Assembly: GCA_964510585.1 (NCBI GenBank)
Contig: CAZECW010000188.1
Location: forward strand, 937-32,936
Length of the DNA: 32,000 nt
From: an uncultured archaeon
GTDB lineage: Archaea > Asgardarchaeota > Jordiarchaeia > Jordiarchaeales > Jordiarchaeaceae
Direction of reading: 5' to 3'
In this document: piece by piece, positions 6,114-29,056 of the stretch
Layout: the number at the start of each line of letters is the position of its first letter
Numbering within the stretch: position 1 is the stretch's first letter
Notes under the pieces: generated by a model
The model's database searches: none
Seen by the model: only the letters and a program-made list of their open reading frames with translations
Told to the model about the DNA's origin: nothing
Translations under genes and position numbers: made by a program

Positions 6114-6641
6114 TTAGAGACCCTTACTTTGAATAATGCTCTTAGCCAGCGCCAAAAAGGCAGCCTCTACATTATCTCCTTCCTTGGCCGAGGTCTCAAA
6201 GAATGGCGCACCCAAACTCTTCGCGTAATCTTCTCCCTCGCTCCTCTTAACCTCCCTAAGATTCTTCAAATCACACTTGTTACCAACAACCACCACCGCT
6301 GCAACATCATTTGTATTATTCATCATTTCAGTTCTCCAATTTTCAAGATTTTCTAAAGTTGTCCTACGAGTAACATCATAGACCAAAAGTGCACCAACCG
6401 CACCCAAATAGAACCCTGACCTAACATGTTTAAAGTGGGGCTGCCCAGCCAAGTCCCAAATAATAAGTTTAACAGAAGTACCCTCAACACTAAGGCTCTT
6501 GGCGAAAATATTTGTTCCTAGAGTCATTTTGTAATCTTTCTGAAATTTTCCAGTAATGAATTTTTCAATTAAGCTTGTTTTACCCACAGCTCCGTCGCCT
6601 GCCAGAATTACTTTGTACATTAGTTCTTTGGGTTTGGACAT
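6114..6641 (-). CDS. Rab-like small GTPase (canonical motifs)
   Basis: G1 GDGAVGKTS, G2 YKMTLG, G3 WDLAGQ, G4 GNKCD, G5 ETSAK. No C-terminal prenylation cysteines. Confidence 0.93.
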   Translation of the reverse strand: MSKPKELMYKVILAGDGAVGKTSLIEKFITGKFQKDYKMTLGTNIFAKSLSVEGTSVKLIIWDLAGQPHFKHVRSGFYLGAVGALLVYDVTRRTTLENLENWRTEMMNNTNDVAAVVVVGNKCDLKNLREVKRSEGEDYAKSLGAPFFETSAKEGDNVEAAFLALAKSIIQSKGL

Positions 6642-8448: not shown

Positions 8449-8910
8449 TTAGTTTTTCATGTTACTCCAGAGAAGGTCTTCTATGGCTTTGAAGTTTATT
8501 AAGCGATCTAGATTGTTTCCCTCAAGTATTTTTTGGATTTCACTTTCTAGGTATTCTAGTTCTTTTTTGTTGTTTTTTCCATCCTTGAATAGAGTGTCGT
8601 ATTTCTCTTGGAATTTTTTGTAGATTTTTTTGAATTTGGAAATGTCTGATGGTTCCTGTTGGGGGTCAATTACTGCTATCATTGTGAAGTTCGTGTCTTT
8701 GTGGAATATAAACCCGTTTTCGCCTATGACGAATGAGGAGAAGCCATTGTTACTCTTTTTTTCAGTAAAAACGTTAGAGAAGTCTGATAGTGCGGAGACG
8801 AAATTGGTGAGTTCCTTGATGTTTATGTCTCTCTTGGAGTTTTCTTTGATGTATAGTGGTTTTCCCTCGCTTGATAGTATGTATATGGCGTGAATCAAAA
8901 GGTTCACCAC
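8449..8910 (-). CDS. Longin-like domain protein
   Basis: N-terminal IHAIYILSSEGKPLY strand pair, helix LTNFVSALSDF, strands SSFVIGENGFIFHKDTNFTMIAVID, then helix KKIYKKFQEKY. This pattern resembles longin folds (AP-sigma/TRAPP/Asgard longins) and was recognised by eye. Confidence 0.65.
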   Translation of the reverse strand: MVNLLIHAIYILSSEGKPLYIKENSKRDINIKELTNFVSALSDFSNVFTEKKSNNGFSSFVIGENGFIFHKDTNFTMIAVIDPQQEPSDISKFKKIYKKFQEKYDTLFKDGKNNKKELEYLESEIQKILEGNNLDRLINFKAIEDLLWSNMKN

Positions 8911-10134: not shown

Positions 10135-10632
10135 TTGAAGACGGAAATAACAAGTATCTCAAAGGAACTCCTACAGAAGTCGATAGACGCTGAGAAACTA
10201 AGGTACTGTTACGGGTGTGGTACTTGTACAGCCAGTTGCCCTGTGGCAAAGGTGATCCCTGAGAGCTTTAACCCGAGGGGGCTGCTTCAGAAAATTTTCT
10301 TTGACTTGAGCAAAACATTAGCTGAAGATGAACTTTGGCTGTGCGCTTGGTGCTACTCATGTTATGAAAGATGCCCTCAGGGAATAAAAACTACAGAAAT
10401 TTTTCTCTTAACCAGAAACCTAGCCGTTGAGAAGGGATACTTTCCCAAGCAGCCCACCAACTTAGTAAAGCAGATTTTGAAGTCTGGACGGACACTGGAG
10501 GTGACACCGGCTCGGGATAGGAAACGAGAGGCTCTCGGACTGCCGAAGATTGGGGAAACTGTTTCAGAGAAGGCGTTGAGAGAAATTAAAATTATAACTG
10601 AGAAAAGTCCAACCTGGAGGGTAAGGGGGTGA
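10135..10632 (+). CDS. hdrC: Heterodisulfide reductase subunit C-like (copy 1)
   Basis: CYGCGTCTASCP and WLCAWCYSCYERCP give 2x[4Fe-4S]. C-terminal REALGLP. Overlaps hdrB. Confidence 0.9.
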   Translation: MKTEITSISKELLQKSIDAEKLRYCYGCGTCTASCPVAKVIPESFNPRGLLQKIFFDLSKTLAEDELWLCAWCYSCYERCPQGIKTTEIFLLTRNLAVEKGYFPKQPTNLVKQILKSGRTLEVTPARDRKREALGLPKIGETVSEKALREIKIITEKSPTWRVRG

Positions 10633-11519
10633 ATCTGGAATATTCGCTTTTTCCAGGATGTGTGTCTTCTGCCCGAGAATTTAGCTGCGAAATTTCTGCT
10701 CGGAAGGTTTTTGAAGTTTTAAATGTGGAACTCTACGATGTGGAGGATTTTACTTGTTGCATGCCTGCCTGTTTGGTACATTCCTTTGATTATGCTACTG
10801 GACTTGCACTAACTTCAAGAAATCTCTGTGTTGCCGACGAGTTTGATAGAGATATTTTGACACTTTGCGTTAGCTGTTATGGTAATCTTTGGAGAGCCAA
10901 AAAACTCATGTCTGAAAATGGAGACCTTAGACGTAGGGTGGATGAGCTCTTAGCTAGCATAGGTAGATCTTACCAAGGCAAAGTGGGCATTAAACATTCA
11001 ATCACTGCCCTATACGAAGACATAGGTCCTAAAAACCTAAAAAACCAGGTTTCTAAACCCCTTAGGGGAATCAAAGCCGCTCCTTTTTATGGTTGCCATC
11101 TTATTCGGCCTAGAGAATACTTGTTCTTTGATGATGCAGAGTTCCCCGAAAAGCTTGATGAGCTTATCAATGTTACGGGGGCTACCAGCGTCCTGCATAG
11201 GGAGAGGACAGGATGTTGCATAGGTTGTGGGAGCTTTTTTGGTGAGGTGGCGGAGGAAGCCGCCCTAAGATTAAGTGTAGATATTCTAGAGAGCGCGCTG
11301 GAGGCTAAGGCGGATTGTGTGGTTGTGACGTGCCCTTACTGTTTTCTCCAGATTGAGATGGGTCAGCTTCTTTTTAAGAGGAGGACGGGAGAATCATACA
11401 ATGTACCTGTGCTTAATTACACAGATTTGTTGGGGTTAGCGCTGGGGATTGAACCCCGAGAACTGGGAATGAATATCCATAAAATAGATCCATCTCCGCT
11501 TCTTGAAAAGATTAAGTAA
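10629..11519 (+). CDS. hdrB: Heterodisulfide reductase subunit B-like (copy 1, divergent CCG motifs)
   Basis: PGC, TCCMPAC, CVSC, YGCH, GCCIGC and CPYC form two CCG domains. Confidence 0.9.
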   Translation: MNLEYSLFPGCVSSAREFSCEISARKVFEVLNVELYDVEDFTCCMPACLVHSFDYATGLALTSRNLCVADEFDRDILTLCVSCYGNLWRAKKLMSENGDLRRRVDELLASIGRSYQGKVGIKHSITALYEDIGPKNLKNQVSKPLRGIKAAPFYGCHLIRPREYLFFDDAEFPEKLDELINVTGATSVLHRERTGCCIGCGSFFGEVAEEAALRLSVDILESALEAKADCVVVTCPYCFLQIEMGQLLFKRRTGESYNVPVLNYTDLLGLALGIEPRELGMNIHKIDPSPLLEKIK

Positions 11520-11535
11520 ATTGGGAAGAGGGAGA

Positions 11536-12876
11536 GTGATTCGTCTGGAAAAAGTTAGCTCGGTTACTGTCATTGGTGGTGGAGTTGCTGGAATACAGGC
11601 AGCATTAGAACTGGCGAATTTAGGAATGCTTGTTTATTTGGTTGAGGAAAATCCCAGTATCGGGGGGCGGATTATTGAACTTAACTGTTCTTCCTGCCGC
11701 CTTGAAGTTCCTATGGATTGTTCCATCTGTCCTGTTATACCTAAAATAGTTGAGTGCTACCACCATCCAAATATTAAGATTCTTACAAACGCCGAAATTA
11801 TGGGTATTTCTGGTTCTGCTGGAAACTTCCAGATAAATGTTTTAAAAAAGCCACGTTTCATTAATGAAGACAAATGCACTGCGTGCGGTGCCTGTACCGA
11901 AAAGTGCCCAGTTGAGATTTTTGATGCATTTAATATGGTTAAAGGAAGGAAGAAGGCTATCCACTTTCCCCTCCCTCAAGCATTTCCTCAGGTTCCAGTT
12001 ATTGATAGAGAGAATTGCTTGCATTTTAGGAGTGGAACCTGCGAAAAATGTTCAGAGGTCTGCCCTACTACGGCAATAAATTTCAATGATGAAGATATGA
12101 TAATTGGAGTTAAAAGTGAAGCTATAATTCTTGCTACGGGGCTTTCTCTTTTTGATCCAAGCGGAATAAGGGAATATGGGTACAAGAGATACAAGAATGT
12201 CATCACCATTCTTGACCTTGAACAAATGACTAGTATACACGGCCCCACGGGAGGTAAAATTGTTAGGATTTCAGACAAAAAAGAGCCAAAAAGTATAGCC
12301 TTCATTCAATGCGTGGGGTCAAGAAGCAGAAGGACAAATAACAATTTCTGCTCTGGAGTATGTTGCATGTACACTGCTAAGGACGCTGCCCTAGTAAAAA
12401 TTTTAAAACCGGAAACAGAAGTGTATGTTTTCTACATTGATCTCCGAGTCTTTGGGAAAGGTTACCAAGAACTTTTCAACAAAGTTAGAAACAGTCTAGG
12501 TGTGAAATATATTAGGGGCCGTCCAGGGGGAATATGGGAAGACCCGAAAACAAGGGACCTTATTATTAGTTTTGAAAACACGCTCACCCAGAGGGTGGAG
12601 AAGTTGAGGGTGGATATGGTGGTTTTATCTCCTGCCTTACTGCCTCATCCTAATAATAGGAAACTGGCTGAATTTTTAGGCCTGGAACTAGATGAACATG
12701 GTTTCTTTAAAAGTCCAAATCCAGTGTCGCAACCTTTTGACACCACCATAAAAGGCGTTTTTACCTGTGGTTACTGTAGGGGACCCAGAGGAATATCTGA
12801 ATCTGCCACTCAAGCTAGTGCCGCCGCGGGAAGGGTTACTGAAACCATTACTTTAGCAAAAATGGGGAGAAATTAA
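11536..12876 (+). CDS. hdrA: HdrA-like flavoprotein half lacking N- and C-terminal domains (FAD plus inserted ferredoxin)
   Basis: IGGGVAG, CTACGACTEKCP, CEKCSEVCP and QCVGSR..FCSGVCC. The ORF opens at TTG 11503; GTG 11536 after GAGGGAG is preferred. Confidence 0.88.
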   Translation: MIRLEKVSSVTVIGGGVAGIQAALELANLGMLVYLVEENPSIGGRIIELNCSSCRLEVPMDCSICPVIPKIVECYHHPNIKILTNAEIMGISGSAGNFQINVLKKPRFINEDKCTACGACTEKCPVEIFDAFNMVKGRKKAIHFPLPQAFPQVPVIDRENCLHFRSGTCEKCSEVCPTTAINFNDEDMIIGVKSEAIILATGLSLFDPSGIREYGYKRYKNVITILDLEQMTSIHGPTGGKIVRISDKKEPKSIAFIQCVGSRSRRTNNNFCSGVCCMYTAKDAALVKILKPETEVYVFYIDLRVFGKGYQELFNKVRNSLGVKYIRGRPGGIWEDPKTRDLIISFENTLTQRVEKLRVDMVVLSPALLPHPNNRKLAEFLGLELDEHGFFKSPNPVSQPFDTTIKGVFTCGYCRGPRGISESATQASAAAGRVTETITLAKMGRN

Positions 12877-12878
12877 GC

Positions 12879-14573
12879 ATGAGTGAAGCTAACCTGAACC
12901 AAGAGCCGAGAATTGGAATATTCCTATGCGATTGCGGAACAAATATCAGTAGCATCATTGATGTTCCTCAAGTCATTGAAGCTTCAAAAGGGATATCTGG
13001 GGTTAAATTTGTGGAGAGAGATAGCTCACTCTGCTCCAGCGCTGGAACAAAAAAGATAAGGGAAACTATAGAGAGGAGCGGCGTAGACCGAGTTGTCTTC
13101 GCAGGTTGCTCACCCAAAAACTATGGTTCACTTTTCGAATCTGTTTGTCAAAAAGCAGGGATAAACAGGTATCTTGTTGCCTTTGCAAACATCAGGGAGC
13201 AGTGCGCCTGGGCACATCAGGACAGGCCAAAGGAAGCCACCATAAAGGCTATTAATACTGTGCAAATGGCCGCGGCGAGACTTCAAAAATCGGAGCCCCT
13301 GCAAGAATTGGAAATAGAGGTACACCCCTCCACACTGATTATTGGAGGTGGCATATCGGGGATGACCGCAGCCCTCTGCTTAGCCAATCAGGGCTTCAGC
13401 GTACTATTAGTGGAGAGGGAGCCCGACATTGGTGGCATGTTAAACAAACTTTATAAATTGTATCTTACCAATCAGGAAGTTTCAGAAATTCTGAATCCAG
13501 TTATCCAGTCGGTGAGAAACCATAAAAACATCAGAATCCTCACATCGGCATCTGTAAGGGAGGTAGAAGGATACTTCGGTGACTTTGAAGTTACAATTTC
13601 TGTTAATGGGGGAACCGAAAAATTTAGGGCGGGAACCATAATTCTGGCAACTGGAGCAGGGACATTTGAACCATTTGGAATGTACGGTTATGGGAAACAT
13701 GAGGGAGTTGTTACCCAGCTTGAATTGGAGCAAATTCTAAAACAAGGGAAGCTGAAACATTTAGAAAAAGTGGTTATGATACAATGCGTGGGAGCCCGGG
13801 AAGAAAAGGGATTAACCTACTGTTCCCGAATATGCTGTATGGTTGCAATTAAAAACGCCACTCTGATAAAGAAATTGTATCCCGACTGTGAGGTTTACAT
13901 CATTTACCGCGATCTGCAAACCTACGGTAAGGAGAACGAGGAGTACCAGTCAAAGGCAAGAGAGCTGGGAATAAGATTTATAGAATATACTCCGGAGCGC
14001 CGCCCAGAAGTATTCCCCAACGGAAATGGAAAAGTAGGGGTGAGAGTTTATCACGCTTTGTTGGGAGAAACCTTAACCATTAATAGTGATTTGGTTGTCC
14101 TATCCACTCCGCTCATCCCCAACGCGGATGGAAAAGAAATTGCAAAAATTCTCAAAGTCCCTTTGGGCCCCGATGGCTTCTTCAAAGAAGCTTATATGGA
14201 AATGCGATCAACAGCCTTCGGTGTTAATGGCATCTATGTCTGTGGAACTGCCCAGGGACCCAAAAGTATTGATGAGAGTATAACCCAAGCATACGCCGCA
14301 GCCGCTCTAGCAGCAATCCCCATGCAACAGAAAAAAGTGAAGATACCAGCCATGACCGCTGAGGTTAATGAAGAGTTATGCATTGGATGCCAACTCTGCC
14401 TGGATCTTTGCCCAGTCCACGCCATCACCTTTGCGGAAGGAAAATCCATGGTAATAGAAGCCATATGCCGAGGTTGCGGTACATGCGCCGCTGCTTGTCC
14501 CTCCAAAGCAATAGCCGTGAAGGGCTTCAAGGATGAACAGATACTTGCGGAGGTGGAGGCAGCCCTTAAATAA
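12879..14573 (+). CDS. hdrA: HdrA-like flavoprotein half (N-terminal cluster domain, FAD, C-terminal ferredoxin; no inserted ferredoxin)
   Basis: LCDCG..GCSP..NIREQCAW, IGGGISG, QCVGAR..YCSRICC, CIGCQLCLDLCP and CRGCGTCAAACP. Confidence 0.9.
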   Translation: MSEANLNQEPRIGIFLCDCGTNISSIIDVPQVIEASKGISGVKFVERDSSLCSSAGTKKIRETIERSGVDRVVFAGCSPKNYGSLFESVCQKAGINRYLVAFANIREQCAWAHQDRPKEATIKAINTVQMAAARLQKSEPLQELEIEVHPSTLIIGGGISGMTAALCLANQGFSVLLVEREPDIGGMLNKLYKLYLTNQEVSEILNPVIQSVRNHKNIRILTSASVREVEGYFGDFEVTISVNGGTEKFRAGTIILATGAGTFEPFGMYGYGKHEGVVTQLELEQILKQGKLKHLEKVVMIQCVGAREEKGLTYCSRICCMVAIKNATLIKKLYPDCEVYIIYRDLQTYGKENEEYQSKARELGIRFIEYTPERRPEVFPNGNGKVGVRVYHALLGETLTINSDLVVLSTPLIPNADGKEIAKILKVPLGPDGFFKEAYMEMRSTAFGVNGIYVCGTAQGPKSIDESITQAYAAAALAAIPMQQKKVKIPAMTAEVNEELCIGCQLCLDLCPVHAITFAEGKSMVIEAICRGCGTCAAACPSKAIAVKGFKDEQILAEVEAALK

Positions 14574-14596
14574 GGATTAAGAAGAGGTTAGCAAAA

Positions 14597-15025
14597 ATGG
14601 AGGAAGGAGAGGAAACAAGGAAGTTTGAGCCCAAAATATTAGCTTTTACCTGCAATTGGAGCAGTTACTCCAGTGCTGACCAGGCGGGAATAAGCAGAAC
14701 ATTTTATCCGCCCAATGTTCAGATAATTAGAGTTATGTGTGCTGGTCGAGTGGATCCACTATTTGTGGTGAAGGCTTTCTTAAATGGGGCTGATGGGGTG
14801 ATCATTGCTGGATGCCACCCTAACTATTGTCGATATAGTGGGGGAAATAGACAAGCAGAAATCAGAGTCAAATTTTTGAAAATGCTCATGGAAGAGATTG
14901 GTGTTGACCCGGCGCGGCTGCGGATAGAATGGATATCTGCTATGGAGGGTGGAAGATTCGCACAGGTAGTTCAGGAAATGGTTGGAGAACTTAAAAAGAT
15001 GGGACCATTACTTTTAAGAAAATAA
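14597..15025 (+). CDS. mvhD: MvhD-like [2Fe-2S] adaptor (copy 1)
   Basis: FTCNWSSY, RVMCAGRVD, GADGVIIAGCHPNYC and RLRIEWISAMEG. Confidence 0.92.
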   Translation: MEEGEETRKFEPKILAFTCNWSSYSSADQAGISRTFYPPNVQIIRVMCAGRVDPLFVVKAFLNGADGVIIAGCHPNYCRYSGGNRQAEIRVKFLKMLMEEIGVDPARLRIEWISAMEGGRFAQVVQEMVGELKKMGPLLLRK

Positions 15026-15040
15026 TGGGAGGTAGACTGC

Positions 15041-16342
15041 TTGGATGGGAAAGAGGGTGTTCTAATAATAGGTGGAGGCATAGCGGGAATCCAGGCCGCA
15101 CTAGATGTAGCCGATCAGGGAGTAAAAGCCTATGTAGTTGAAAGTACGCCCAGTGTGGGTGGACATATGGCTATGTTGGATAAGACTTTCCCCACACTTG
15201 ACTGCTCAGCTTGTATCCTCACTCCAAAAATGGTGGATGTGGGCAGGCATCCCAATGTTGAGCTTCTAACTTATTCCGAGGTAAGAAAAGTTAAGAGGGA
15301 GGGTAGAGGTTTTGAAGTAGAGATTGTGAAGAAGCCGAGATACGTTGACATATCCAAGTGTACGGGGTGCGGGGTGTGTGCTAGATACTGCCCAGTAGAA
15401 GTTTCTGACGATTTCAATGCAGGAATGGATGTTCGGAAGGCGATTTATGTGCCTTTCCCCCAGGCAGTTCCACTAAAATACACTATAGATGAAGAGCATT
15501 GTATTAGGTGTGAGCTCTGTAAAAGGATATGTGAATCCATAGGGGCTGGAGCGGTAAACTTTGATCAGGTGGCTGAGGAGGTTAACCTCAATGTGGGGGC
15601 GATTATTATTGCGACTGGCTATAAACCTTTTGACGTTAGACAAAAGAAGGCGTATGGCTACGGAAAATATCCGAACGTTTTAACGGCCTTGGAGCTTGAG
15701 AGATTACTCTCCGCCGCCGGACCAACTGCTGGACATATTTTGAGACGCTCAGATGGCTGTATACCTAAGAGGGTTGCTTTTGTTCAGTGTGTAGGTTCAA
15801 GAGACTCACACCACGGCTATCCATACTGCTCCAGAGTCTGTTGCATGTATGCCATAAAGGACAGTATACTGCTAAAAGAGCATATACCTGATGTTGATGT
15901 TACCATCTTTTACATGGATATTAGAACCTATGGTAAAGGCTTTGAAGAACTATATCAGAGGGCGAAGGAGGAGTTCAAGGTTCGATTCAGGCGGGGAAGG
16001 GTGGCAAGAATTTACGAGATTCCTGAAACCCACAACCTGGTAGTGAGGGTTGAAGACACTGAGACCGGAGAGATTTTACAGGAAGAATTTGAAATGGTGG
16101 TTCTTTCTGTGGGTTTAGCACCAGCAGACGGAATAGCAGAGCTGAGCAAAATTCTGGAAGTGCCTCTGGACGAGTATGGTTACATAGAGGGAGCAGATGC
16201 AAAGATTGATACTGTTTCAACAAAAGTTCCGGGTGTTTTTGTAGCGGGAACAGCTTTGAGTCCCAAGGATGTCCCAGATAGTGTATCTGAAGCCAGCGCG
16301 GCGGCTATGAAGGCGGTAACGTTCCTGAGAGGGAGGAAGTAG
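15041..16342 (+). CDS. hdrA: HdrA-like flavoprotein half lacking N- and C-terminal domains
   Basis: [43 protein letters not shown] and QCVGSR..YCSRVCC. TTG start with GGAGGT at 15028-15033. Confidence 0.92.
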   Translation: MDGKEGVLIIGGGIAGIQAALDVADQGVKAYVVESTPSVGGHMAMLDKTFPTLDCSACILTPKMVDVGRHPNVELLTYSEVRKVKREGRGFEVEIVKKPRYVDISKCTGCGVCARYCPVEVSDDFNAGMDVRKAIYVPFPQAVPLKYTIDEEHCIRCELCKRICESIGAGAVNFDQVAEEVNLNVGAIIIATGYKPFDVRQKKAYGYGKYPNVLTALELERLLSAAGPTAGHILRRSDGCIPKRVAFVQCVGSRDSHHGYPYCSRVCCMYAIKDSILLKEHIPDVDVTIFYMDIRTYGKGFEELYQRAKEEFKVRFRRGRVARIYEIPETHNLVVRVEDTETGEILQEEFEMVVLSVGLAPADGIAELSKILEVPLDEYGYIEGADAKIDTVSTKVPGVFVAGTALSPKDVPDSVSEASAAAMKAVTFLRGRK

Positions 16343-16343
16343 T

Positions 16344-18293
16344 ATGGAGGAAGAATTACGTGTTGGGTGTTACATTTGCCATTGTGGACTTAACATTGCA
16401 GGAGTAATTGATGTGGAAAAGGTGGCGGAAGCCACGGGAAAACTTCCGAACGTAGTGATTGCGAGGCACTACGTTTACATGTGTTCGGAGCCCGGTCAGG
16501 AACTAATAAAAAAGGATATCAAAGACTACAATTTGAACAGGGTTGTAGTGGCTTCCTGCTCTCCCCAAATGCATGAATCCACATTCCGCTCCGTTGTGGA
16601 GGAGGCTGGTTTAAACCGGTATCTTTTCGAAATGGCTAATCTTCGAGAGCAATGTTCATGGGCCCATGCAAATAATCCCGTGAAGGCCACTGAGAAGGCG
16701 AAGGACATATTGAGAATGGCTGTTGCTAAGGTTCGCCTGCTTCAACCCTTAGAGAAGAGGGAGGTTCAGGTTAAACCCGCAACTCTGATTGTGGGTGGAG
16801 GAATAACTGGAATCCAAGCAGCTTTGGAATTGGCTAATAGGGGATTTTCCACTTATCTTGTTGAGAAGTTACCTTACCTTGGGGGAAGAGTGGCTCAGTT
16901 AAACAGGGTAATTTTAACCAATGAGAGAGCCTCAGAAATTTTAAAACCAATGTTAAACGCTTTAACAGGGAATCCGAACATTGAAGTGTTCACCAACACC
17001 GAAATTGAGGAAATAGGTGGCTACATTGGCAACTTTGAAATAAAGCTGAAGATAGGACCCCGTTTCGTTAACCAGAAATGCAACTTGTGCGGGAAATGCC
17101 TGGAGGTGTGCCCCGTAGAGGTACCAGACGAATTTAACTTTGGATTAAACAACAGAAAGGCCATATATATTCCCCACAGTGACTCTGTGCCCAGAATTCC
17201 TACTATTGATGGGGCTAACTGTACACGCTGTGGGGAGTGCATCAAGGTCTGCGAGCAAAATGCTATTTCTTTGGACAGCGAACCACAAAACAAAAACATT
17301 TCGGTGGGAACAATTATTCTCGCCACCGGCTATGATCCCTATTTGCCCCAAGGCGAGTATGGCTTTGGAGAGTATGAAGATGTAATAACTCAGTTCCAAC
17401 TGGAAAGAATGCTCAGCAACAATGGTCCCACCAATGGGCGGTTAGTAAAACCTTCCAATGGAAAGGTGCCTAGAAACGTAGTTTTTATTCTGTGTGTGGG
17501 TTCCAGAAATCCCCATAGGCAATATTGCTCCAGAGTTTGCTGCTCTGTGGCATTAAAAAACGCTATGCTCATCAAAAAAGAGTATCCTGAAACGCAGGTC
17601 TCCATTCTTTACCGAGATATCAGAAGCTTTGGTAAAGGACAGGAAGAACTTTATGGAGAGGCGCGACTAGCGGGCATAAACTTTTTCAGGTATTCACCAG
17701 ATAACCCCCCAAAGGTTTCCAGACTAGATAACTCGCAGATTCAGGTGGAGGTCTATGAATCCATACTGGGAATGAACATTGAGATTCCCGCGGATCTCCT
17801 AATTCTTGCTGAGGCTATGACTCCCCGAAAGGACTCCGCGGAGTTAGGTTCAAAAGTGGGGGTCACGCGTACACCAGATGGCTTTTTCCGTGAGGCGCAC
17901 CCTAAGCTCAAGCCCCTCGACACAAATTCTGAAGGAATATACCTTGCTGGCGCCGCCCAGTTCCCCAAAGATATCACCGAGTGTATAGTTCAAACATGCG
18001 GGGCAGCTGCGAGGGCCTCAATTCCTATGTCTAAGGGTAAAGTGGACGTGGAGCCCATAGTAGCCTCGGTGAACGAAGATCTTTGTATCGAGTGCGGAAC
18101 CTGCCAGAGTATATGTCCTTATGGAGCAATAAAGAAGGGTGAGAATGGAAAAGCGCAAGTCACAGAGATTTTATGTAAGGGTTGTGGTTCCTGCGCCGCA
18201 AGCTGCCCAGCAAGGGCCATTACAATATTTCATTTTACAGATGAGCAAATCCTAGCTCAATCACTCGCCGCATTAGGGAGGGGAGAACCATGA
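16344..18293 (+). CDS. hdrA: Near full-length HdrA lacking the DCxxC motif
   Basis: ICHCG..MCS..ASCSP..NLREQCSW, VGGGITG, inserted ferredoxin (CNLCGKCLEVCP, CTRCGECIKVC), YCSRVCC, and C-terminal CIECGTCQSICP and CKGCGSCAASCP. Confidence 0.93.
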   Translation: MEEELRVGCYICHCGLNIAGVIDVEKVAEATGKLPNVVIARHYVYMCSEPGQELIKKDIKDYNLNRVVVASCSPQMHESTFRSVVEEAGLNRYLFEMANLREQCSWAHANNPVKATEKAKDILRMAVAKVRLLQPLEKREVQVKPATLIVGGGITGIQAALELANRGFSTYLVEKLPYLGGRVAQLNRVILTNERASEILKPMLNALTGNPNIEVFTNTEIEEIGGYIGNFEIKLKIGPRFVNQKCNLCGKCLEVCPVEVPDEFNFGLNNRKAIYIPHSDSVPRIPTIDGANCTRCGECIKVCEQNAISLDSEPQNKNISVGTIILATGYDPYLPQGEYGFGEYEDVITQFQLERMLSNNGPTNGRLVKPSNGKVPRNVVFILCVGSRNPHRQYCSRVCCSVALKNAMLIKKEYPETQVSILYRDIRSFGKGQEELYGEARLAGINFFRYSPDNPPKVSRLDNSQIQVEVYESILGMNIEIPADLLILAEAMTPRKDSAELGSKVGVTRTPDGFFREAHPKLKPLDTNSEGIYLAGAAQFPKDITECIVQTCGAAARASIPMSKGKVDVEPIVASVNEDLCIECGTCQSICPYGAIKKGENGKAQVTEILCKGCGSCAASCPARAITIFHFTDEQILAQSLAALGRGEP

Positions 18294-19060
18294 GTTATGA
18301 GCCAAGAATAGTTGGGTTTTTGTGCAATTGGTGTGCCTACTCAGCCGCAGACTTAGCTGGCATGAGTAGAATTAGTTACCCTCCAACCATACGTATTGTG
18401 AGGTTGATGTGTAGTGGCAGAATTGACCCAGTAATCATAGTGGACACTCTCGCTAATGGCGCCGATGGAGTTTTAATTGCAGGATGCCTTCCGGGTGATT
18501 GCCACTACGTGGAGGGCAACCTCAACGCAGAAGTTAGAATAAAGATTTTGAAAAATTTGATAGCCAAAACTGGATTGGAGCCAGAAAGATTACGTCTGGA
18601 ATGGATCCCAGCTTCGGGTGGAACTCTTTTTGCAGAGGTCGTCAAAGACTTCACAAACCAGTTAACCTCCTTGGGCCCATCACCTCTAGCTGGAGAGAAC
18701 CCGGACAAAAACATACTAGAACTATTGGCAGTGGTCAGGGACACTGTTGCCGATGTACGTTTACGAGAACTGGTAGGCAAGAAGAGACAAATTACTGAGA
18801 AAGGAAACGTATACGGAGAAGTGATATCTAAGGAAGAGTTTGAGAAGAGACTAACTGATTACATTGATGACGAATTTGACCGACATAAAATACTCCGTAT
18901 GGTAAAAGAACGCTCCCTATCAGTTAGGGAGCTATCTGAAAGACTGAATCTGAGCCCCCAAAGGGTGTTGCGCCACATTGCAGCTATGCGTCGGAAAAAC
19001 CTGGTGGCAGTTGAAAGAATTGAGGGAGTGTCCCCTCTATACACGGCTTTGGAGGTGTGA
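18290..19060 (+). CDS. mvhD: MvhD-like [2Fe-2S] domain fused to a helical linker and winged helix-turn-helix
   Basis: The N-terminal ~135 aa carry FLCNWCAY, RLMCSGRID and GCLPGDCHY. The C-terminus ILRMVKERSLSVRELSERLNLSPQRVLRHIAAMRRKNLV has the ArsR/MarR-like wHTH pattern. Confidence 0.88.
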   Translation: MSYEPRIVGFLCNWCAYSAADLAGMSRISYPPTIRIVRLMCSGRIDPVIIVDTLANGADGVLIAGCLPGDCHYVEGNLNAEVRIKILKNLIAKTGLEPERLRLEWIPASGGTLFAEVVKDFTNQLTSLGPSPLAGENPDKNILELLAVVRDTVADVRLRELVGKKRQITEKGNVYGEVISKEEFEKRLTDYIDDEFDRHKILRMVKERSLSVRELSERLNLSPQRVLRHIAAMRRKNLVAVERIEGVSPLYTALEV

Positions 19061-22000
19061 ATATGGAGGATAAGGTCGGAGCGGTACTAGTTGTGGGAGG
19101 CGGAATAGCAGGAATCCAAGCCGCACTTGATTTGGGAGACTCCGGCTTCAAAGTCTACTTGATGGATGAGACGCCCTCAATTGGAGGTGTAATGGCTCAG
19201 CTGGATAAGACCTTCCCCACAAATGATTGCGCTATGTGTATTCTCGCACCAAAGCTGGTTGGTTGCGGAAGACACCCCAACATTCAACTTTTAACTAACG
19301 CCTCCATAAAGGGAGTCGAAGGCAGCGCAGGCCACTTCAAAGTCACCATCACTAAGAGACCCAGACGTGTTAATGAGAGTAAGTGCACTGGGTGCGGTGT
19401 GTGTGCCAGATGGTGCCCTGTTGAGGCTATCGACGAGTTCAATGAAGGACTGAGTAATCGGGGAGGAATATTCGTTAGGTACCCACAGGCAGTTCCCTTA
19501 ATATACTCAATTGATAAAGAGAAATGTATAGGATGTGGGATATGTAGCGAGGTGTGCAGGGCGAAGGCAATCGAATATGAGCAGGAGGAGCAAGACCTAG
19601 TTTTGGATGTGGGCTCCATAATACTTGCACCTGGATTTGAGGAATTTGAGGCGGAAGCCCTCCAGGAATATGGTTATGGACGCTTCCCTAATGTGGTTTC
19701 AAGTATAGAGTTTGAACGCATCCTTAGTGCTTCTGGACCCTATGGCGGTTTAGTCATCCGCCCCTACGATGGGGATATTCCCAAAAATATTGCGTTTATT
19801 CAGTGTGTTGGCTCTCGTGACACCCGTCTGGGAAACAGTTACTGCTCCGCTGTGTGCTGTATGTTTGCAATTAAGGAAGCGGTGATTGCTAAGGAACATA
19901 CTCAGACCCCCTTGGATTGCACCATATTTTTCATAGATATGCGTTCCTACGGAAAGGAGTTCGACGGCTACTATAAGAGGGCTGAGGAAGAATATGGAGT
20001 GAGATTTGTTAGATCTAGGGTTGCTAGCATAGAGGAGATACCCAAGTCACACAATCTTCTTGTGAAGTATATTGAAGACGGTGAGCCCAAGGAGGAAGAA
20101 TTTGACCTTGTGGTACTCTCAGTTGGAATGAAACCACCTAGAAATGCCCGGGAAATAGCGGAAAAACTGGGAATAGAACTTAACGAGTATGGGTTCTGCA
20201 AAACAGGCGAGTTTACCCCACTTGAAAGCTCGGTGCCAGGTATCTATGTTTGTGGAGCATTCTCTTCCCCCAAGGACATTCCGGACAGTGTAGCACAAGC
20301 AAGCGGCGCCGCCGCCAAAGCGGGAAGCATCATATCCCCGGCGAGGGGAAAACTAATCTCTAGAAAGCAGTATCCACCTGAGAAAAACGTGGAGGGGAAG
20401 GAGCCTCGAATTGGAGTGTTTGTTTGTCACTGTGGGATAAATATTGGTGGAGTAGTTGACGTGCCCAGAGTAGTGGAGTATGCTAAAACACTTCCAAATG
20501 TGGTATACGCGGAGCACAACCTTTACACTTGCTCTCAAGATACTGGTGCACGCATAGTGGAAGCCATAAAGGAACATGACCTTAACCGCGTTGTGGTGGC
20601 ATCATGTACCCCAAGAACACATGAACCCCTCTTCAGAGACACAATTAGGGAAGGGGGGTTAAACCCCTACCTCTTTGAAATGGCAAACATAAGGGATCAA
20701 TGCTCCTGGGTACACATGCTTGAGCCTGAGAAGGCAACACAGAAAGCCATAGATCTAGTGAGGAGTGCTGTGGCAAAAGCCAGACTACTTAAACCCCTTC
20801 AAAAACCAATGATAAAGATTATACCCGCGGGTCTAGTGATTGGTGGGGGATTATCGGGAATGACTGCGGCTTTGGAACTTGCAGAACAAGGATTCGAGGT
20901 ACACTTGGTGGAGAAAGAGAAACAGCTTGGAGGAAATCTCCGTAGAATAAAATTCCTTCTCAACAGCGACAAACCCAGCGAAAGACTCGAATCTTTAATA
21001 AGAAGAGTAGAAGAGAACGGGAAAATACATGTTTACACAGAAGCGGAAGTTGTGGGTGTTGAGGGATATGTTGGAAACTTTAAGACAACTATAATAGCCA
21101 ACGGGGAGAGAAGGGAGATTCAGCATGGGGTAATAATTGTAGCTACGGGTGGGACTGAGTATAAACCCATTGAGTATTTTTATGGAATGGATGACCGGGT
21201 ACTAACCCAGTTAGAATTGGAGGAAAAGTTGGCAAACGGGGGGTTCAGCGCGGATACAGTGGTTATGATACAGTGTATTGGCTCAAGAAATGGTGAACAC
21301 CCGAGCTGCTCCAGAGTTTGTTGTTCCAGTGCAATTAAGAACGCTTTAAAAATTAAGGAGTTAAATCCAAAAACAGAGGTCTATGTGCTTTATAGAGATA
21401 TAAGAACTTATGGTTTCCGGGAGAAATATTATCAGGAAGCTCAGAGGAGGGGAGTAATATTCATTCGCTACGATGAAGATCACAAACCTGAGGTGACAAA
21501 TGAGGGAACACTCAGGGTACTGGTCAGGGATCCCATCATCAAGAAGAAAATCGAAATCGAGCCCGACCTCATTGTATTAAGTGCGGGGATACATCCAAAC
21601 CGCGATAACAAAAATTTGGCTCAAATGCTAAAAGTTCCCCTGAGCAAGGAGGGATTTTTCCTGGAGGCGCATATGAAGCTTCGCCCAGTTGATTTTGCCA
21701 CAGAGGGAATTTTTCTCTGTGGGCTGGCACAGTCACCAAAATTCATAGATGAATGTATATCTCAAGCTTGTGGCGCAGCTGCTCGAGCCGCCACCATTCT
21801 ATCCAAAGAAGCACTGGAAATAGAGGGGGCAATAGCTAAGGTTGACGAAGATCTCTGCGCTGCATGTAAAGTCTGTGTATCTATCTGTGAGAGTGGAGCT
21901 GCGCAAATCGTGGAAAAGAATGGGAGGCGTGTTTCAAACATAATAGAAGCCCTCTGTAAGGGGTGTGGGCTTTGTAGCGCCGCCTGTCCCTCGGGAGCGA

Positions 22001-22068
22001 TAACCATAGAGCATTTTAATGATAAACAGATTCTGGCTCAGATTAGAGCTTTGCTGGGAGGTGGATAA
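19057..22068 (+). CDS. hdrA: Tandem (double-FAD) HdrA-like fusion protein, 1003 aa
   Basis: First module [19 protein letters not shown], two ferredoxin motifs and YCSAVCC. Then [13 protein letters not shown], a second FAD motif IGGGLSG, CSRVCC and a C-terminal ferredoxin. Confidence 0.93.
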
Positions 22069-22069
22069 T

Positions 22070-22498
22070 GTGGCGGAGTTCGAACCCAAAATAGTGGCTT
22101 TTTGCTGTAGCTGGTGTAGCTACGCCGGCGCCGATTTAGCGGGAGTGAGTAGGTTTCAGTATCCCACAAATGTTAAAATAATCAGGGTTATGTGCAGCGG
22201 CAGAATAGACCCTACATTTGTACTTGAAGCCTTCAAAAACGGTGCCGATGCAGTACTAGTGGCAGGATGCCACATACCATCTGATTGCCACTATTTAACA
22301 GGAAACTTGAGAGCCCAACGTAGAATTGCTCTGACCAGAAATCTTTTGAAGCAGCTCGGAATAGAGCCGGAACGGTTAAGGTTGGAGTGGATTTCTGCTT
22401 CGGAGGGGGACAAATTTGCGGCGGTTGTGAAGGAAATGACTCAAAGGATAAAGGAACTTGGCCCAAGCCCACTCAGTGGTGGAGGTGATGGAAAATGA
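22070..22498 (+). CDS. mvhD: MvhD-like [2Fe-2S] adaptor (canonical copy)
   Basis: [31 protein letters not shown] and WISASEG. GTG 22070 follows GGAGGTG (22057-22063); the ORF track start at 22019 overlaps hdrA. Confidence 0.95.
22481..22489 (+). promoter_or_regulatory. Shine-Dalgarno site (example; similar sites precede most operon-internal genes)
   Basis: GGAGGTGAT ends 5 nt before ATG 22495 and matches the archaeal anti-SD complement. Confidence 0.7.
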
Positions 22499-23016
22499 CT
22501 GAAGAAGTCATCAAACTGTCAGAGGCTGATCGCCAATTCAAATATGAGCTCAGCCATATGCCGGAAATAGAGAACCTCATGCTCTGTATGCAGTGTGGGA
22601 CGTGTACCGCGGATTGTCCTGTAGCTCGCTTCAGCGGGACATACAGGCCTCTTAAGATACTGAGAATGGTTCTTTTTGGGTTAAAATCGGATGTTCTTTC
22701 AGCTGGTGAACTTTGGCTTTGCGCTTCTTGTTACACTTGTACTGACCGCTGTCCGAGGGGTGTAAGGTTTTCCAGCTTATTGAGGGAGCTCAGAAATCTT
22801 GCTGTGAAGGAGGGATATATTCCAGATGGTTTTAGGGAATTGGCCTCTAACATTTTAGAAACGGGTTACGCTTACGAAATATCAGAGTCCAGAATGAAGA
22901 AGAGGGAGACTTTAGGGCTTCCTCCACTACCAAAGGCTAACCCCAAAAAGCTTGCTAGACTCGCAGAAATTGCTGGATTCCTAAAAAAGGCAAAAAAGGT
23001 GGATGGAGGGAAGTAA
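22495..23016 (+). CDS. hdrC: HdrC-like (copy 2)
   Basis: [26 protein letters not shown] and RETLGLPP. Confidence 0.93.
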
Positions 23017-23902
23017 AATTTCGGATTCAACTTACTTGCTGTATTTAGGCTGTCTAATTCCCTATAGGGTTCCCAGCTATGAGGTTGCAGCGAGAAAGGT
23101 TCTTAGCAGGTTGGACGTCGAGTTAGTGGACATGCTCGAGTTTAACTGCTGCGGTCTCCCCATGGATCCCATTAGTCACGAGGTTATGATGGTTTTGGCT
23201 GCTTGGAACCTTTGTTTAGCGGAGAGGGAGGAACTTGACATATTGACTCTTTGTCCCGGCTGCAGTGGCACCCTCCACAAGGTGAACACCATCCTTAGAG
23301 AGGAGGAGAATGTTAGGGAAAAAATTAACAACTTCTTGAAAAGGGATGGAATGGAGTATAAGGGAAATATAGAAGTTAAACATCTGGTTCAGGTACTAGT
23401 GGAGAAGGTAGGCACTGAGAAACTTAAGGAAAAAATTGTAAAACCACATAAAGGTCTCAAAGTGGTGGAGCATTATGGCTGCCACATTCTGCGGCCAAAG
23501 GAGTACATGAAATTTGATGATTCTGAAAACCCCACAATTTTGAGACAATTGATTGAATCTACGGGAGCCACATGTCTGGATTACGTGAACAAAAGGGAGT
23601 GCTGCGGCTACCCAATCATGTCCATAGACGAAAAAATTCCTTTTCAACTAGCTGGAGACAAACTTAAGCACATGAAGGAAGTGGGGGCCGATGCCCTAAT
23701 TACCATTTGTCCTTCCTGCTACCTGGCTTTTGACCTTAATCAGTCCCGAATAGAGAAACTTTTTGGTGAAAAATTTGAGCTCCCAGTGCTTCACTACCCT
23801 GAGCTTCTAGCGCTGGCTTTGGGAATTGAGCCAGACGAGCTGGCTTTAAATGATCACAGAGTTAGGGTTTCAAAAATATTGAAAAATGGTTCGGGAGGAT
23901 AA
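23003..23902 (+). CDS. hdrB: HdrB-like (copy 2)
   Basis: LGC, NCCG, CPGC, HYGCH, ECCG and CPSC: all CCG-domain ligands are present. Confidence 0.93.
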   Translation: MEGSKISDSTYLLYLGCLIPYRVPSYEVAARKVLSRLDVELVDMLEFNCCGLPMDPISHEVMMVLAAWNLCLAEREELDILTLCPGCSGTLHKVNTILREEENVREKINNFLKRDGMEYKGNIEVKHLVQVLVEKVGTEKLKEKIVKPHKGLKVVEHYGCHILRPKEYMKFDDSENPTILRQLIESTGATCLDYVNKRECCGYPIMSIDEKIPFQLAGDKLKHMKEVGADALITICPSCYLAFDLNQSRIEKLFGEKFELPVLHYPELLALALGIEPDELALNDHRVRVSKILKNGSGG

Positions 23903-23909
23903 ACCCGCA

Positions 23910-24254
23910 ATGTCTGAAGATTTAAGAAAAAGACTGGAGGCGGCTGTTGGAGTTCTGGGAGATATTCGTGTCAGATGGCTAATTGGGCGAAGCCAAGCCC
24001 TATTGGAATCAGGAACCATAACCAAAGAAGGGTTAGAGCAACTTATGAGGAAAATTATGAGAGAGGAGCTGGAAAGATGGCTTATTATGAATGAAATCGA
24101 AAGACAGGGACCACTATCAGTCAAAGACCTTTCCGGGGCAACCCGACTTCCAGAACAAACAGTGGTGAAGCACCTACTAGCTCTAAGAAGAAATGGGCGG
24201 ATTACCTTCGCGGGTGAGAAAGAGAACATGCACCTATATGATTTGGTGAGATAA
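23910..24254 (+). CDS. Stand-alone helical-linker plus winged-helix protein, paralogue of the C-terminus of 18290-19060
   Basis: DIRVRWLIG..ITKE..EELERWLI..GPLSVKDLSGATRLPEQTVVKHLLALRRNGRI. ATG 23910 after GGGAGG is preferred to 23886, which overlaps hdrB. Confidence 0.82.
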   Translation: MSEDLRKRLEAAVGVLGDIRVRWLIGRSQALLESGTITKEGLEQLMRKIMREELERWLIMNEIERQGPLSVKDLSGATRLPEQTVVKHLLALRRNGRITFAGEKENMHLYDLVR

Positions 24255-24288
24255 AGCAGAGAATAAAATTGAAGAGTGGTGATTCAAA

Positions 24289-24834
24289 ATGACTGAAGCA
24301 AATTCTTCTGATGAAAAGCAAACAGTCATCAAACTCCAAGATTTGGATACTAGTCTACAGGAGGAGATTAGCAAAATTCCGGGATGCGAAAAACTTATGC
24401 TCTGCTTCCAGTGTGGCACATGCAGTGCCGACTGTCCAGTTGGGAGACACCTCAATGAGTACAAGCCTAGGTTAATAGCTATGATGACCAAGCTTGGAAT
24501 GAAGCAAGCGCTCTTTCAGGGAGATTTATTGTGGCTGTGCACCCAGTGTTACACGTGCCTTGAACGTTGCCCCCAGAATGTGGAGCTGGCGGAGATAATT
24601 TCCGCTCTGCGAGGAATCGCGGCCAGGGAAGGTTACCTACATCCCTCTTTGAAGAAGGTTATTGAAGCCCTGGCCAATCATGGTTACATTTACGAGATAA
24701 CTGAATTCATAGAGGAAGATAGGGAAATGAGGGAGCTCCCACCTGTTCCCAAAGTTAACATTGGCGAAGTTAGAAAAATTATGAGAATGACAGGAATAGA
24801 CAAACTTGTAGGAATAGAACTGGAGGAGGACTAA
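24289..24834 (+). CDS. hdrC: HdrC-like (copy 3)
   Basis: CFQCGTCSADCP, WLCTQCYTCLERCP and REMRELPP. Confidence 0.93.
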   Translation: MTEANSSDEKQTVIKLQDLDTSLQEEISKIPGCEKLMLCFQCGTCSADCPVGRHLNEYKPRLIAMMTKLGMKQALFQGDLLWLCTQCYTCLERCPQNVELAEIISALRGIAAREGYLHPSLKKVIEALANHGYIYEITEFIEEDREMRELPPVPKVNIGEVRKIMRMTGIDKLVGIELEED

Positions 24835-24840
24835 AAATTT

Positions 24841-25707
24841 ATGAGGTACGCATTTTTTGTGGGGTGCACAACATTAGCCAGGCTTCCAAGCTACGAGGTT
24901 TCTACAAGAAAAGTAGCCGAGGCTTTGGGTGTGGAACTCTTGGATATGGAGGGAGCGGGATGTTGCGGAACCACTTATTTAAAATGTATAGAACCCAGAA
25001 CGGCGCTTGCCTTGGCTGCTCGGAACATATCCATAGCGGAGGATATGGGGGTTAACATTGTCACTTTGTGTAACGGTTGCACAGAGGTTCTCACAGATGC
25101 CAACAACACGCTAAAAGAAGAAGGGGAACTCAGAGAAGATGTGAACAGCATTCTTGCAGAGGTGGATCGGGAGTTTAGGGGGAAAGTGGAGGTTAAACAT
25201 TTTGTGCGAATGTTTCTTGAGGATTTGGGAATCGATAAAATTCGCGCCCGTGTGTCAAACCCTCTGGAGGGTTTAAGAGTGGCGGTGCATTACGGATGCC
25301 ACTTATTAAAGCCTTTCAAGATAATGAATTTTGATGACCCTGAAGACCCCACTTCCCTAGATGAACTAGTCAACATTACGGGGGCAGTGAGTGTAGATTA
25401 TCCGGGTAAGCTGGACTGTTGCTCCGCCCCACTGCTGACGATAAAACGAAGAAACGAGTTGGCCACTGAAATAGCTAGGGAAAAACTATCAACAGTTAAG
25501 AAGTATGCCGATATAATGATTACCGTTTGCCCATTTTGCTACTTGATGTATGAGCAGAGTCAAATGCCCCCAAACAATCCCATCGATATTCCCATAGTGC
25601 ATTATTCTCAGCTCCTAGGTTTAGCGATGGGAATAGACTATCAAGATCTAGCCCTCAACGAAAACCGCATAGACGCCTCGGTAATAAAAAATTTTCAAAA
25701 TAGGTAA
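24841..25707 (+). CDS. hdrB: HdrB-like (copy 3)
   Basis: VGC, GCCG, CNGC, HYGCH, DCCS and CPFC. Confidence 0.93.
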   Translation: MRYAFFVGCTTLARLPSYEVSTRKVAEALGVELLDMEGAGCCGTTYLKCIEPRTALALAARNISIAEDMGVNIVTLCNGCTEVLTDANNTLKEEGELREDVNSILAEVDREFRGKVEVKHFVRMFLEDLGIDKIRARVSNPLEGLRVAVHYGCHLLKPFKIMNFDDPEDPTSLDELVNITGAVSVDYPGKLDCCSAPLLTIKRRNELATEIAREKLSTVKKYADIMITVCPFCYLMYEQSQMPPNNPIDIPIVHYSQLLGLAMGIDYQDLALNENRIDASVIKNFQNR

Positions 25708-27296: not shown

Positions 27297-27659
27297 TAAA
27301 CCAACAAAGGCAGCAAGCTATTAAAAGCTTTGCGAATGTGAAGCTGAAGGAATGAAAATAATTTCGGAACCGGTTCAAGGCACGAAACTATTTAGTTATT
27401 GGGAAGGGAGAAAAATCTGTATTCCGTGTAGATATAGGTCTGTGGACTAACTTCGATGTGAAAATATATTTTTCATAAAGGATTTTTTGGGTAGTCATCA
27501 TAATTTTTGAGGCGTACCTTTTTTTGGGAAATGTTTATTTTTGTAAAAGGAAAGATTAGACACCAATTGGCTAGGGAAGTAATCAGAAACAATAAAAAAA
27601 GGGTAGAAATTATTTGTCCATGGATACCCGTCTGAAACATTTTGGACATGGTGGTGTGC

Positions 27660-29050: not shown

Positions 29051-29056
29051 TTTATT

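Follow-up and report, generated by a model that had tools for sequence, protein, structure and literature searches.

Anaerobic archaea depend centrally on flavin-based electron bifurcation (FBEB) of the heterodisulfide reductase (Hdr) type for their energy metabolism, and Hdr copies are unusually numerous in Asgard archaea, the closest known relatives of eukaryotes. Here we describe an hdrA-rich gene cluster in a stretch of 32,000 nucleotides from a Jordarchaeia genome (GenBank assembly GCA_964510585.1, contig CAZECW010000188.1, our C188:937-32936), hereafter called the window. The cluster contains three tandem modules, each made up of an HdrA unit termed A', a second HdrA unit termed A and an MvhD protein. 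Where methanogen heterodisulfide reductase has a symmetric HdrA homodimer, each module would hold an asymmetric HdrA'-HdrA pair with its own MvhD that keeps one bifurcation unit working in trans, a reading to which we assign a probability of roughly 0.7.

In the solved HdrA homodimers each bifurcation unit works in trans, with a mobile arm placed on the body of the partner (2026 cryo-electron microscopy; PMC13580544 for Mvh-Hdr and PMC13518236 for Hdr-Vhu-Fwd). The arm consists of the N-terminal domain with the shuttle cluster HA3, the C-terminal ferredoxin and the docked MvhD, while the body provides Cys194'/Cys197', FAD', HA4' leading to HdrCB, and HA5'/HA6' of the inserted ferredoxin leading to ferredoxin (PMC13580544). 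The MvhD cluster comes near Cys202'/Cys205' (Cys194/Cys197 in the numbering of PDB entry 5ODC) and FAD'; the high-potential electron exits via HA4' to HdrCB, and the low-potential electron passes to HA3 of the arm and on to HA5'/HA6' of the partner's inserted ferredoxin (PMC13580544).

Departures from this symmetry have been described. Chadwick et al. 2022 (PMC9012536) reported tandem HdrA5/6 and HdrA12/13 and fused HdrA3/4 in anaerobic methanotrophic archaea (ANME), in which one unit combines the N-terminal domain with a missing Cys197 and the opposite holds for its partner. Complementarity extends to the C-terminal ferredoxin in these pairs, which were concluded to be heterodimers that break the two-fold symmetry, and the same was noted for the fused HdrA of Moorella MetFV-HdrABC-MvhD (PMC9012536). 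A 2025 classification in Microbiology Spectrum (PMC12054007) distinguishes, among others, class A6 (no N- or C-terminal domain), class A12 and type II (A3), in which two different type I classes are fused and the two halves fall into separate clades. In addition, double-HdrA fusions and many hdrA copies, up to six per assembly, have been found in Thorarchaeota, Lokiarchaeota and the TACK archaea (mSystems 2024, PMC11237513).

The genes of the three modules in the window are as follows.

11503-12876, +: A'1, 457 residues; flavin adenine dinucleotide (FAD) domain, motif DCSIC, inserted 2x[4Fe-4S] ferredoxin; no N-terminal domain, no C-terminal ferredoxin (the true start may be 11536, as first annotated)
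12879-14573, +: A1, 564 residues; N-terminal cluster domain, FAD domain, thioredoxin-reductase-domain cluster, C-terminal ferredoxin; no DCxxC, no inserted ferredoxin
14597-15025, +: mvhD of module 1 (Pfam PF02662 FlpD, E 9e-49)
15041-16342, +: A'2, 433 residues; anatomy as A'1, motif DCSAC
16344-18293, +: A2, 649 residues; like A1 plus the inserted ferredoxin ('N-iC' type); no DCxxC
18290-19060, +: mvhD of module 2 (FlpD, E 1.7e-50 at residues 7-129) with a C-terminal winged-helix domain (HTH_24/HTH_5 at 198-243)
19057-22068, +: fused A'3-A3, 1003 residues; residues 1 to about 435 are A' (motif DCAMC, inserted ferredoxin)
within 19057-22068, +: residues about 436 to 1003 of the same chain are A, with N-terminal domain and C-terminal ferredoxin; no DCxxC, no inserted ferredoxin
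22019-22498, +: mvhD of module 3 (FlpD, E 1.8e-56; E 8e-53 to 5ODC chain D)

Like ANME HdrA5/6, 12/13 and 3/4, these are adjacent or fused complementary units with MvhD and hdrBC in the cluster. Unlike the ANME systems, they occur as three tandem modules in a non-methane-metabolising host that has no McrA, and no FdhAB-like genes are found in the cluster. The ANME fused forms are described with the N-terminal-domain half first (PMC9012536), whereas A' comes first here. With regard to the 2025 classes, A' corresponds to A6, A resembles A12, and the fused chain matches type II, with E356 and K409 kept; these two residues are marks of bifurcating HdrA (PMC12054007). That survey covered mcrA-bearing archaea only, inferred a single fusion and suggested two bifurcation sites; we argue for one complete unit, and our FastTree analysis suggests at least two fusion or fission events. 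The Thorarchaeota and Lokiarchaeota study catalogued fusions, and domain and cysteine complementarity and split partners were not analysed there (PMC11237513). Compared with the homodimeric HdrA of MvhAGD-HdrABC (5ODC, 8RVU, 7BKB, 9SW2-6), the fold and cofactor motifs are shared, and the trans logic of arm on body explains which parts are kept; in contrast, the six units each lack defining parts, and none would be able to form a functional symmetric dimer alone. QmoA and QmoB of sulfate reducers (PMC3333476) are likewise two different HdrA-like flavoproteins within a single complex, a short one and a long one with an MvhD-type domain. In Qmo, however, this domain is fused to QmoB, whereas MvhD is free here and hdrBC pairs with a CCG-domain hdrB are present. 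No QmoC (a membrane fusion of cytochrome b and HdrC), cytochrome b/HdrE-like or Apr genes were found among all window open reading frames (ORFs) scanned, and QmoABC identity was rejected since the window has neither QmoC nor Apr; the PDB structures searched include no Qmo structure for comparison.

The original prediction, made from the sequence letters alone, had tied the novelty of the architecture to its not fitting described types. It maps onto HdrA5/6, 12/13 and 3/4 and onto A6 + A12 = type II (PMC9012536, PMC12054007), so that asymmetric split and fused HdrA is already published and widespread in other archaea, and the locus is a Jordarchaeia example of it. The known picture of what HdrA-type proteins are is thus unchanged. 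What the locus adds, modestly, is a correspondence between the parts retained and just one trans unit in the mobile-arm model, a multi-module operon common to several archaeal phyla, and signs that fusion or fission happened more than once.

Anatomy and probable pairing of the A' and A units

Gene order and domains were taken from ORF calls and Pfam scans. We aligned the six module units together with a 777-residue HdrA-MvhD fusion encoded further downstream, and matched the latter to HdrA chain A of 5ODC (whose source organism is given as M. wolfeii in PMC9012536 and as Methanothermococcus thermolithotrophicus in the PDB title). The DCxxC motif, D193-C194-x-x-C197 of 5ODC HdrA, is present in A'1, A'2, the N-terminal half of the fused chain and the 777-residue copy; A1, A2 and the C-terminal half of the fused chain have non-cysteine residues at this site. 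In A'1, A'2 and the fused chain's first 435 residues, the sequence begins at the FAD-binding GGG motif and ends after the thioredoxin-reductase-like domain, and the ferredoxin domain at the C-terminus is restricted to units bearing the N-terminal domain. The inserted 2x[4Fe-4S] ferredoxin, with eight cysteines, occurs in all A' units, A2 and the 777-residue copy and is missing from A1 and A3. All seven units retain the FAD glycines, E356, K409 and the four HA4 cysteines (C386, C399, C403 and C404). Each of the six module units is without two or more canonical HdrA elements, and they score 389-799 bits against NCBIfam HdrA cut-offs of 1300-1400 (NF041778/NF041891), below which the 777-residue copy also falls; all six stay under the HdrA2 cut-off as well.

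This anatomy agrees with what had been predicted. Three tandem A' + A + mvhD modules with complementary domains and DCxxC motifs are borne out by Pfam, the alignment and the 5ODC match; separate out-of-frame genes in modules 1 and 2 and a single 1003-residue chain in module 3 are seen in the ORFs. The alignment likewise shows that, among the A units, only that of module 2 has the inserted ferredoxin, and the 777-residue copy does carry all HdrA elements (four HdrA domains and the motif DCAPC).

To see how general the arrangement is, we gathered 329 HdrA units from the source genome and 90 fetched loci. The commonest ORF type was the fused '-ci-+N--C' form (97 ORFs, plus four with a tail), always with A' first, and free units numbered 34 A', 31 A and 3 'N-iC'; these counts are biased and are not prevalences, as the fused protein served as bait in fetching the loci, and to that extent they speak less strongly for the pairing. 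Every A' fusion seen, in the surveyed loci as well as in the proteins found by searching a database with A2, links A' to A, with no case of A' linked to A'. Where the pair is split, the two genes stay adjacent and coupled in 28 loci, which also speaks for pairing. The four cysteines of the N-terminal domain are 100% conserved across 127 A units, and C57/C60 are invariant across 25 split A' units. Phylogenetic trees were computed from 338 core columns, with the DCxxC columns and all variable domains left out. A and A' units formed separate clades both in IQ-TREE (101 units; support 96 for A and 96 for A') and in FastTree (292 units; 99 and 96), as the original prediction had proposed for checking. 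Moreover, the A' and A subtrees mirror each other, and the pairwise identities of the two halves correlate (r = 0.93).

Structure prediction pointed in the same direction. A co-fold of the A'1 + A1 pair alone, built on our own 25-row alignments, gave an interaction prediction score from aligned errors (ipSAE) of 0.86 versus 0.00 for the best control; the partner predicted local distance difference test (pLDDT) value was no lower than 86, and the runs had at least 86% of their contacts in common. Among solved complexes 58 of 80 reached the mark applied, as did 2 of 110 mismatched pairs. The predicted interface involves, on the A' side, residues 60-65 (C60 being the Cys197 equivalent) and 106-113 (the first inserted-ferredoxin motif) and, on the A side, residues 41-50 and 73-81, the loops of the N-terminal cluster around C45 and C70. 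Such a co-fold shows compatibility, not binding. The fused 1003-residue chain, modelled with AlphaFold2, formed one confident body (pLDDT 86, predicted template modelling score 0.89), and a fold search with this model returned only HdrA chains, matched one half at a time, plus generic flavoprotein reductases.

Taken with the same-order fusions and the mirrored clades, the co-fold, a kind of check that the original prediction had suggested and one that passes its controls, supports the proposed obligate pseudo-heterodimer: A' and A very probably pair in this form, their flavins being non-equivalent. The arrangement behind that proposal, in which the DCxxC region lies near the partner's N-terminal cluster, is confirmed by PMC9012536 and PMC13580544.

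Proposed electron path and competing readings

In the arm-and-body scheme, the parts retained by A are exactly those of the arm and the parts retained by A' exactly those of the body. One trans unit would therefore survive in full, in which the arm of A acts on the flavin of A', and the reciprocal unit would be dismantled. The A flavin and its HA4-type cluster, retained without an arm, may be structural or may serve as a secondary electron port. In keeping with this reading, E356 and K409 are invariant in A' units only, the core of A' was more conserved than that of A in 92% of comparisons, and the interface of the A'1-A1 co-fold brings the Cys197-equivalent loop and first inserted-ferredoxin motif of A' together with the N-terminal cluster loops of A. 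Three hdrCB pairs accompany the three modules in the window, and like ratios are seen in L017, L026 and L050; these gene counts suggest one HdrBC per A'-A pair, and the modules are co-inherited in the operon with about one hdrCB pair each. They are probably flavin-based bifurcating or confurcating disulfide reductases, with a donor (a hydrogenase, an FrhB/Fdh-like enzyme or another) that would be encoded elsewhere; the anatomy, the splits, the clades and the conserved operon are shown, and we infer that A' and A pair physically and that one flavin is active, as well as the substrate and donor. [NiFe]-hydrogenase genes lie beside other HdrA copies of the genome, on contigs C3 and C20.

Read in this manner, the locus would be a clean natural case in which a bifurcating enzyme built as a homodimer has been cut down to a one-sided heterodimer, and the mapping gives a concrete, testable answer to a question open in the literature, namely whether fused and tandem HdrA has one or two bifurcating flavins.

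Several points weigh against the single-unit arrangement. The flavin site of A is well conserved in A units, fused HdrA has been read as having two possible bifurcation sites (PMC12054007), and the inserted ferredoxin of A2 would have no obvious partner if only one unit operates. Sources also disagree on the role of Cys194/Cys197: PMC9012536 (from 5ODC) describes a ligand of the partner's cluster, and in PMC13580544 the pair holds an unknown ligand located between MvhD and FAD. No donor enzyme genes were found among the window ORFs, and no McrA in the source genome, which is 96% complete; a methanogen or ANME context was ruled out on the latter ground. As for the structural support, the co-fold covered the A'1-A1 heterodimer, its pass may be owed to likeness to the solved HdrA homodimers, and the PDB structures searched include no solved asymmetric or double HdrA. 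A literature search, likewise, turned up no experimental structure for fused HdrA, tandem HdrA or MetFV-HdrABC.

The alternative that fares best is that both flavins are catalytic, giving two bifurcation or confurcation sites, or that the arm-less A flavin takes hydride directly from NAD(P)H or F420H2, which would make a hydrogenase or dehydrogenase partner unnecessary. The FAD motifs, the HA4 cysteines and mostly E356/K409 are indeed kept in A units, the cluster encodes no donor enzyme, two FBEB sites have been proposed for type II HdrA (PMC12054007), and the fused HdrA of Moorella MetFV-HdrABC-MvhD is linked to NADH in work cited by PMC9012536. However, A' has neither the N- nor the C-terminal domain, leaving no electron shuttle to or from the A flavin as in the solved complexes (PMC13580544), and A1 and A3 also have no inserted-ferredoxin exit. 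E356 and K409 are less strictly kept in A (83-96% in 127 units) than in A' (100% in 128 units), and the MvhD in each module implies an external donor. On balance we consider this alternative unlikely.

A further possibility makes the arm-less A flavin a second active site, fed by direct hydride from NAD(P)H or F420H2 or relaying electrons between modules, so that the three modules and three HdrBC would form one bifurcation hub without need of a dedicated hydrogenase. If true, such a multi-module hub would be a new operating mode of Hdr in Asgard archaea, Bathyarchaeia and Thermoplasmata; we regard it as improbable, somewhat more so than two catalytic flavins as such.

Far less can be said for the view that the units do not pair with their neighbours at all, A' and A each homodimerising or joining a canonical HdrA from elsewhere, with the tandem order reflecting co-regulation only. 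Possible partners do exist, as the source genome has six further HdrA genes. Against this stand the exclusive A'-A fusions, the mirrored trees of the two halves and the passing A'1-A1 co-fold; moreover, an A-A dimer would have no Cys197 partner residue, and an A'-A' dimer would have neither an arm nor a docking domain for MvhD. We judge such independent dimers very unlikely and retain the asymmetric A'-A pair as the preferred reading.

Finally, we examined the splits in modules 1 and 2. The junctions read TAA-gc-ATG in module 1 and TAG-t-ATG in module 2, with the two genes in different frames and a GGAG-like motif before each downstream start, which corresponds to the usual picture of translational coupling and suggests that the A'-A gene pairs of both modules are translationally coupled. 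Contigs from the independent hot-spring runs X4 (2025) and X6 (2023) span positions 12400-16800 with 113 substitutions and 0 indels. The split boundaries are the same in four congeneric genomes and in L013, and A' and A are separate adjoining genes in 28 loci from other taxa. The stops at 12874 and 16340, which the original prediction wanted confirmed in reads, are therefore real. That the splits are assembly or sequencing frameshifts, all three modules being of one fused type, might be entertained because stop and next start are merely 1-2 bases apart and fused homologues are common, and it is excluded by the gap-free contigs of independent studies across both junctions, the retention of the split in congeneric genomes and other taxa, the different clades of split and fused units and the Shine-Dalgarno-like motifs upstream of both downstream starts. 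A contig of run X5 that skips 13204-15827 was considered as a deletion variant and rejected; its shorter side has just 20 letters, and it was treated as a cross-match of paralogous hdrA genes.

Relatives, operon and evolution

The three modules are 42-52% identical to one another, and each has closer counterparts in Bathyarchaeia, with up to 70% identity for module 3. This argues against a recent local duplication series, which was rejected on these figures. Module 3 falls inside the main fused clade (support 100 in both halves, with mirrored topology), beside Bathyarchaeia, while module 1 lies within a widespread split clade, and both parts of module 2 are sister to the Bathyarchaeia pair L046. 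Modules 1 and 3 are nearer to Bathyarchaeia than to other Asgard archaea.

The surveyed loci revealed a recurring operon with the order hdrCB, A', A, mvhD, fused A'A, mvhD, hdrCB. Loci of Bathyarchaeia (e.g. L021, L030 and L042), of Promethearchaeota (Asgard archaea of the Lokiarchaeia type; L070 and L080-L083) and of Thermoplasmata (L058 and L073) contain it, and the number of modules reaches four (L049). The operon was also found in bins labelled as bacterial, namely L017 (Patescibacteria), L050 (Krumholzibacteriaceae), L056, L060, L074, L077 and L084. In each of the four subtrees L017 and L050 lie nested with L042 from Bathyarchaeia, so that either misbinning or recent transfer is likely. 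The operon being common to Bathyarchaeia, Lokiarchaeia-type Asgard archaea, Thermoplasmata and some bacterial bins, biochemical results obtained on it would therefore apply widely. L074 and L077, from delta-proteobacterial bins, carry HdrA ORFs of about 1500 residues with additional N-terminal sequence.

Module 2 represents a common type: among the proteins found in the database search with A2, 55 are free 'N-iC' forms, from Jord-, Frey-, Loki- and Bathyarchaeia, and 13 are fused '-ci-+N-iC' forms. In a FastTree enlarged with these, A units with the inserted ferredoxin were sister (support 86) to all A units lacking it (99), and within each lineage fused and split forms made up separate groups. 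The fused '-ci-+N-iC' proteins (1095-1136 residues; P0038, P0041-P0044, P0047, P0048, P0052, P0054 and P0055) correspond to module 2 in a single chain. Each of their two halves makes up a clade distinct from the main fused clade, which argues against a single fusion event.

From these trees it follows that the A'/A asymmetry is old, with a single origin, and that A lost its inserted ferredoxin later. Fusion or fission would have taken place at least twice, as FastTree alone suggests. The three modules are accordingly co-resident old paralogue types and not steps of a local process. The proposal that they capture three evolutionary stages stands in part: at the family level the module-2 type does branch first in the A clade, but as a local series it falls, because the Bathyarchaeia counterparts are closer and because a single conserved operon stably combines split with fused forms in several phyla.

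Another kind of double-HdrA fusion, 1085-1095 residues long, was seen in P0032, P0040, P0045, P0046, P0050 and P0051, one of which is named Nezhaarchaeota. Here the first half carries the N-terminal domain and DCxxC, and the second half, which lacks both, carries the C-terminal ferredoxin; the two halves branch beside the A' and A clades.

The source genome has a size of 3.78 Mb and is 96% complete. A locus matching at 95% identity was found in Candidatus Jordarchaeia archaeon RPF2, and in public runs the DNA of the window was seen only in hot-spring metagenomes, with no RNA run listed among those carrying it. The congeneric complete genome G005 has no fused or split A'/A module, its best match (E 1e-115) being a canonical copy. 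The cluster may thus be accessory and laterally exchanged among hot-spring archaea. The six further HdrA genes of the source genome comprise four of canonical type, two of them with selenocysteine, one winged-helix-HdrA-MvhD protein and one second fused A'-A gene (contig C76, 9398-12481), which is 54% identical to module 3. The two selenocysteine genes, on contigs C76 (13352-15250) and C150 (27318-29210), encode canonical HdrA with an in-frame TGA at Cys197 (DCxxU). Selenocysteine HdrA has already been published for Asgard archaea.

Neighbouring genes, MvhD proteins and the 777-residue copy

From 10135 to 25707 every gene lies on the + strand. The order is hdrC-hdrB; A'1, A1, mvhD; A'2, A2, mvhD with winged helix; fused A'3-A3, mvhD; hdrC-hdrB; a small winged-helix gene; and hdrC-hdrB. 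Downstream of 25707, two opposite-strand genes are followed by hdrC-hdrB and the 777-residue hdrA-mvhD fusion. The remaining genes of the cluster are these.

10135-10632, +: hdrC, first of three hdrCB pairs flanking the modules (Pfam Fer4_8/Fer4_9/Fer4_17; grouped with HdrC by phmmer)
10629-11519, +: hdrB, two CCG domains (Pfam PF02754 CCG, 2 stretches, E 7e-21)
22495-23016 and 23003-23902, +: hdrC and hdrB of the second pair
23886-24254, +: small free winged-helix protein between hdrCB pairs (weak Pfam HTH_24/HTH_5; also in the surveyed loci L013, L026 and L046)
24289-24834 and 24841-25707, +: hdrC and hdrB of the third pair
27642-31390, +: separate unit of hdrC (27642-28169), hdrB (28166-29050) and the 777-residue hdrA-mvhD fusion (29057-31390)

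The three free MvhD proteins differ at accessory residues. In MvhD, Cys16, Asp71 and His68 lie between the MvhD cluster and the flavin (PMC13580544). MvhD1 keeps its four cluster cysteines and has lost the equivalents of Cys16 and Asp71, MvhD2 is without the His68 equivalent, and MvhD3 keeps the equivalents of all three. These differences suggest that the step of electron entry is tuned in a module-specific manner.

The 777-residue copy contains all four HdrA domains and an MvhD-like tail at residues 640-777. It aligns over positions 2-775 of the HdrA2 profile NF040770, with 807.9 bits against a cut-off of 1100, and its first C-terminal ferredoxin motif reads CX5CX3CP, giving 7 of the usual 8 cysteines. 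Of the four cluster cysteine positions shared by the three free MvhDs and the solved MvhD, the tail retains just one, and because of this it probably binds no [2Fe-2S] cluster.

With regard to the remainder of the window, small helix-turn-helix genes likewise adjoin A'/A modules in L026 and L046, both from Bathyarchaeia. Just upstream of the flavoprotein-rich cluster, at 368-5312, lies an archaeal riboflavin biosynthesis operon with genes for DHBP synthase, two proteins of the DMRL-synthase family, GTP cyclohydrolase III, an amidohydrolase, a RibD C-terminal reductase and a creatininase-family protein. Between this operon and the cluster, on the minus strand, are a Ras-family small GTPase at 6114-6641 (-; Pfam Ras, E 2.5e-52) and, at 8449-8910 (-), a protein with a weak match to a FUZ/MON1-type longin domain. 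A Ras-family GTPase together with a longin-like protein belongs to the eukaryote-like signature proteins typical of Asgard archaea.

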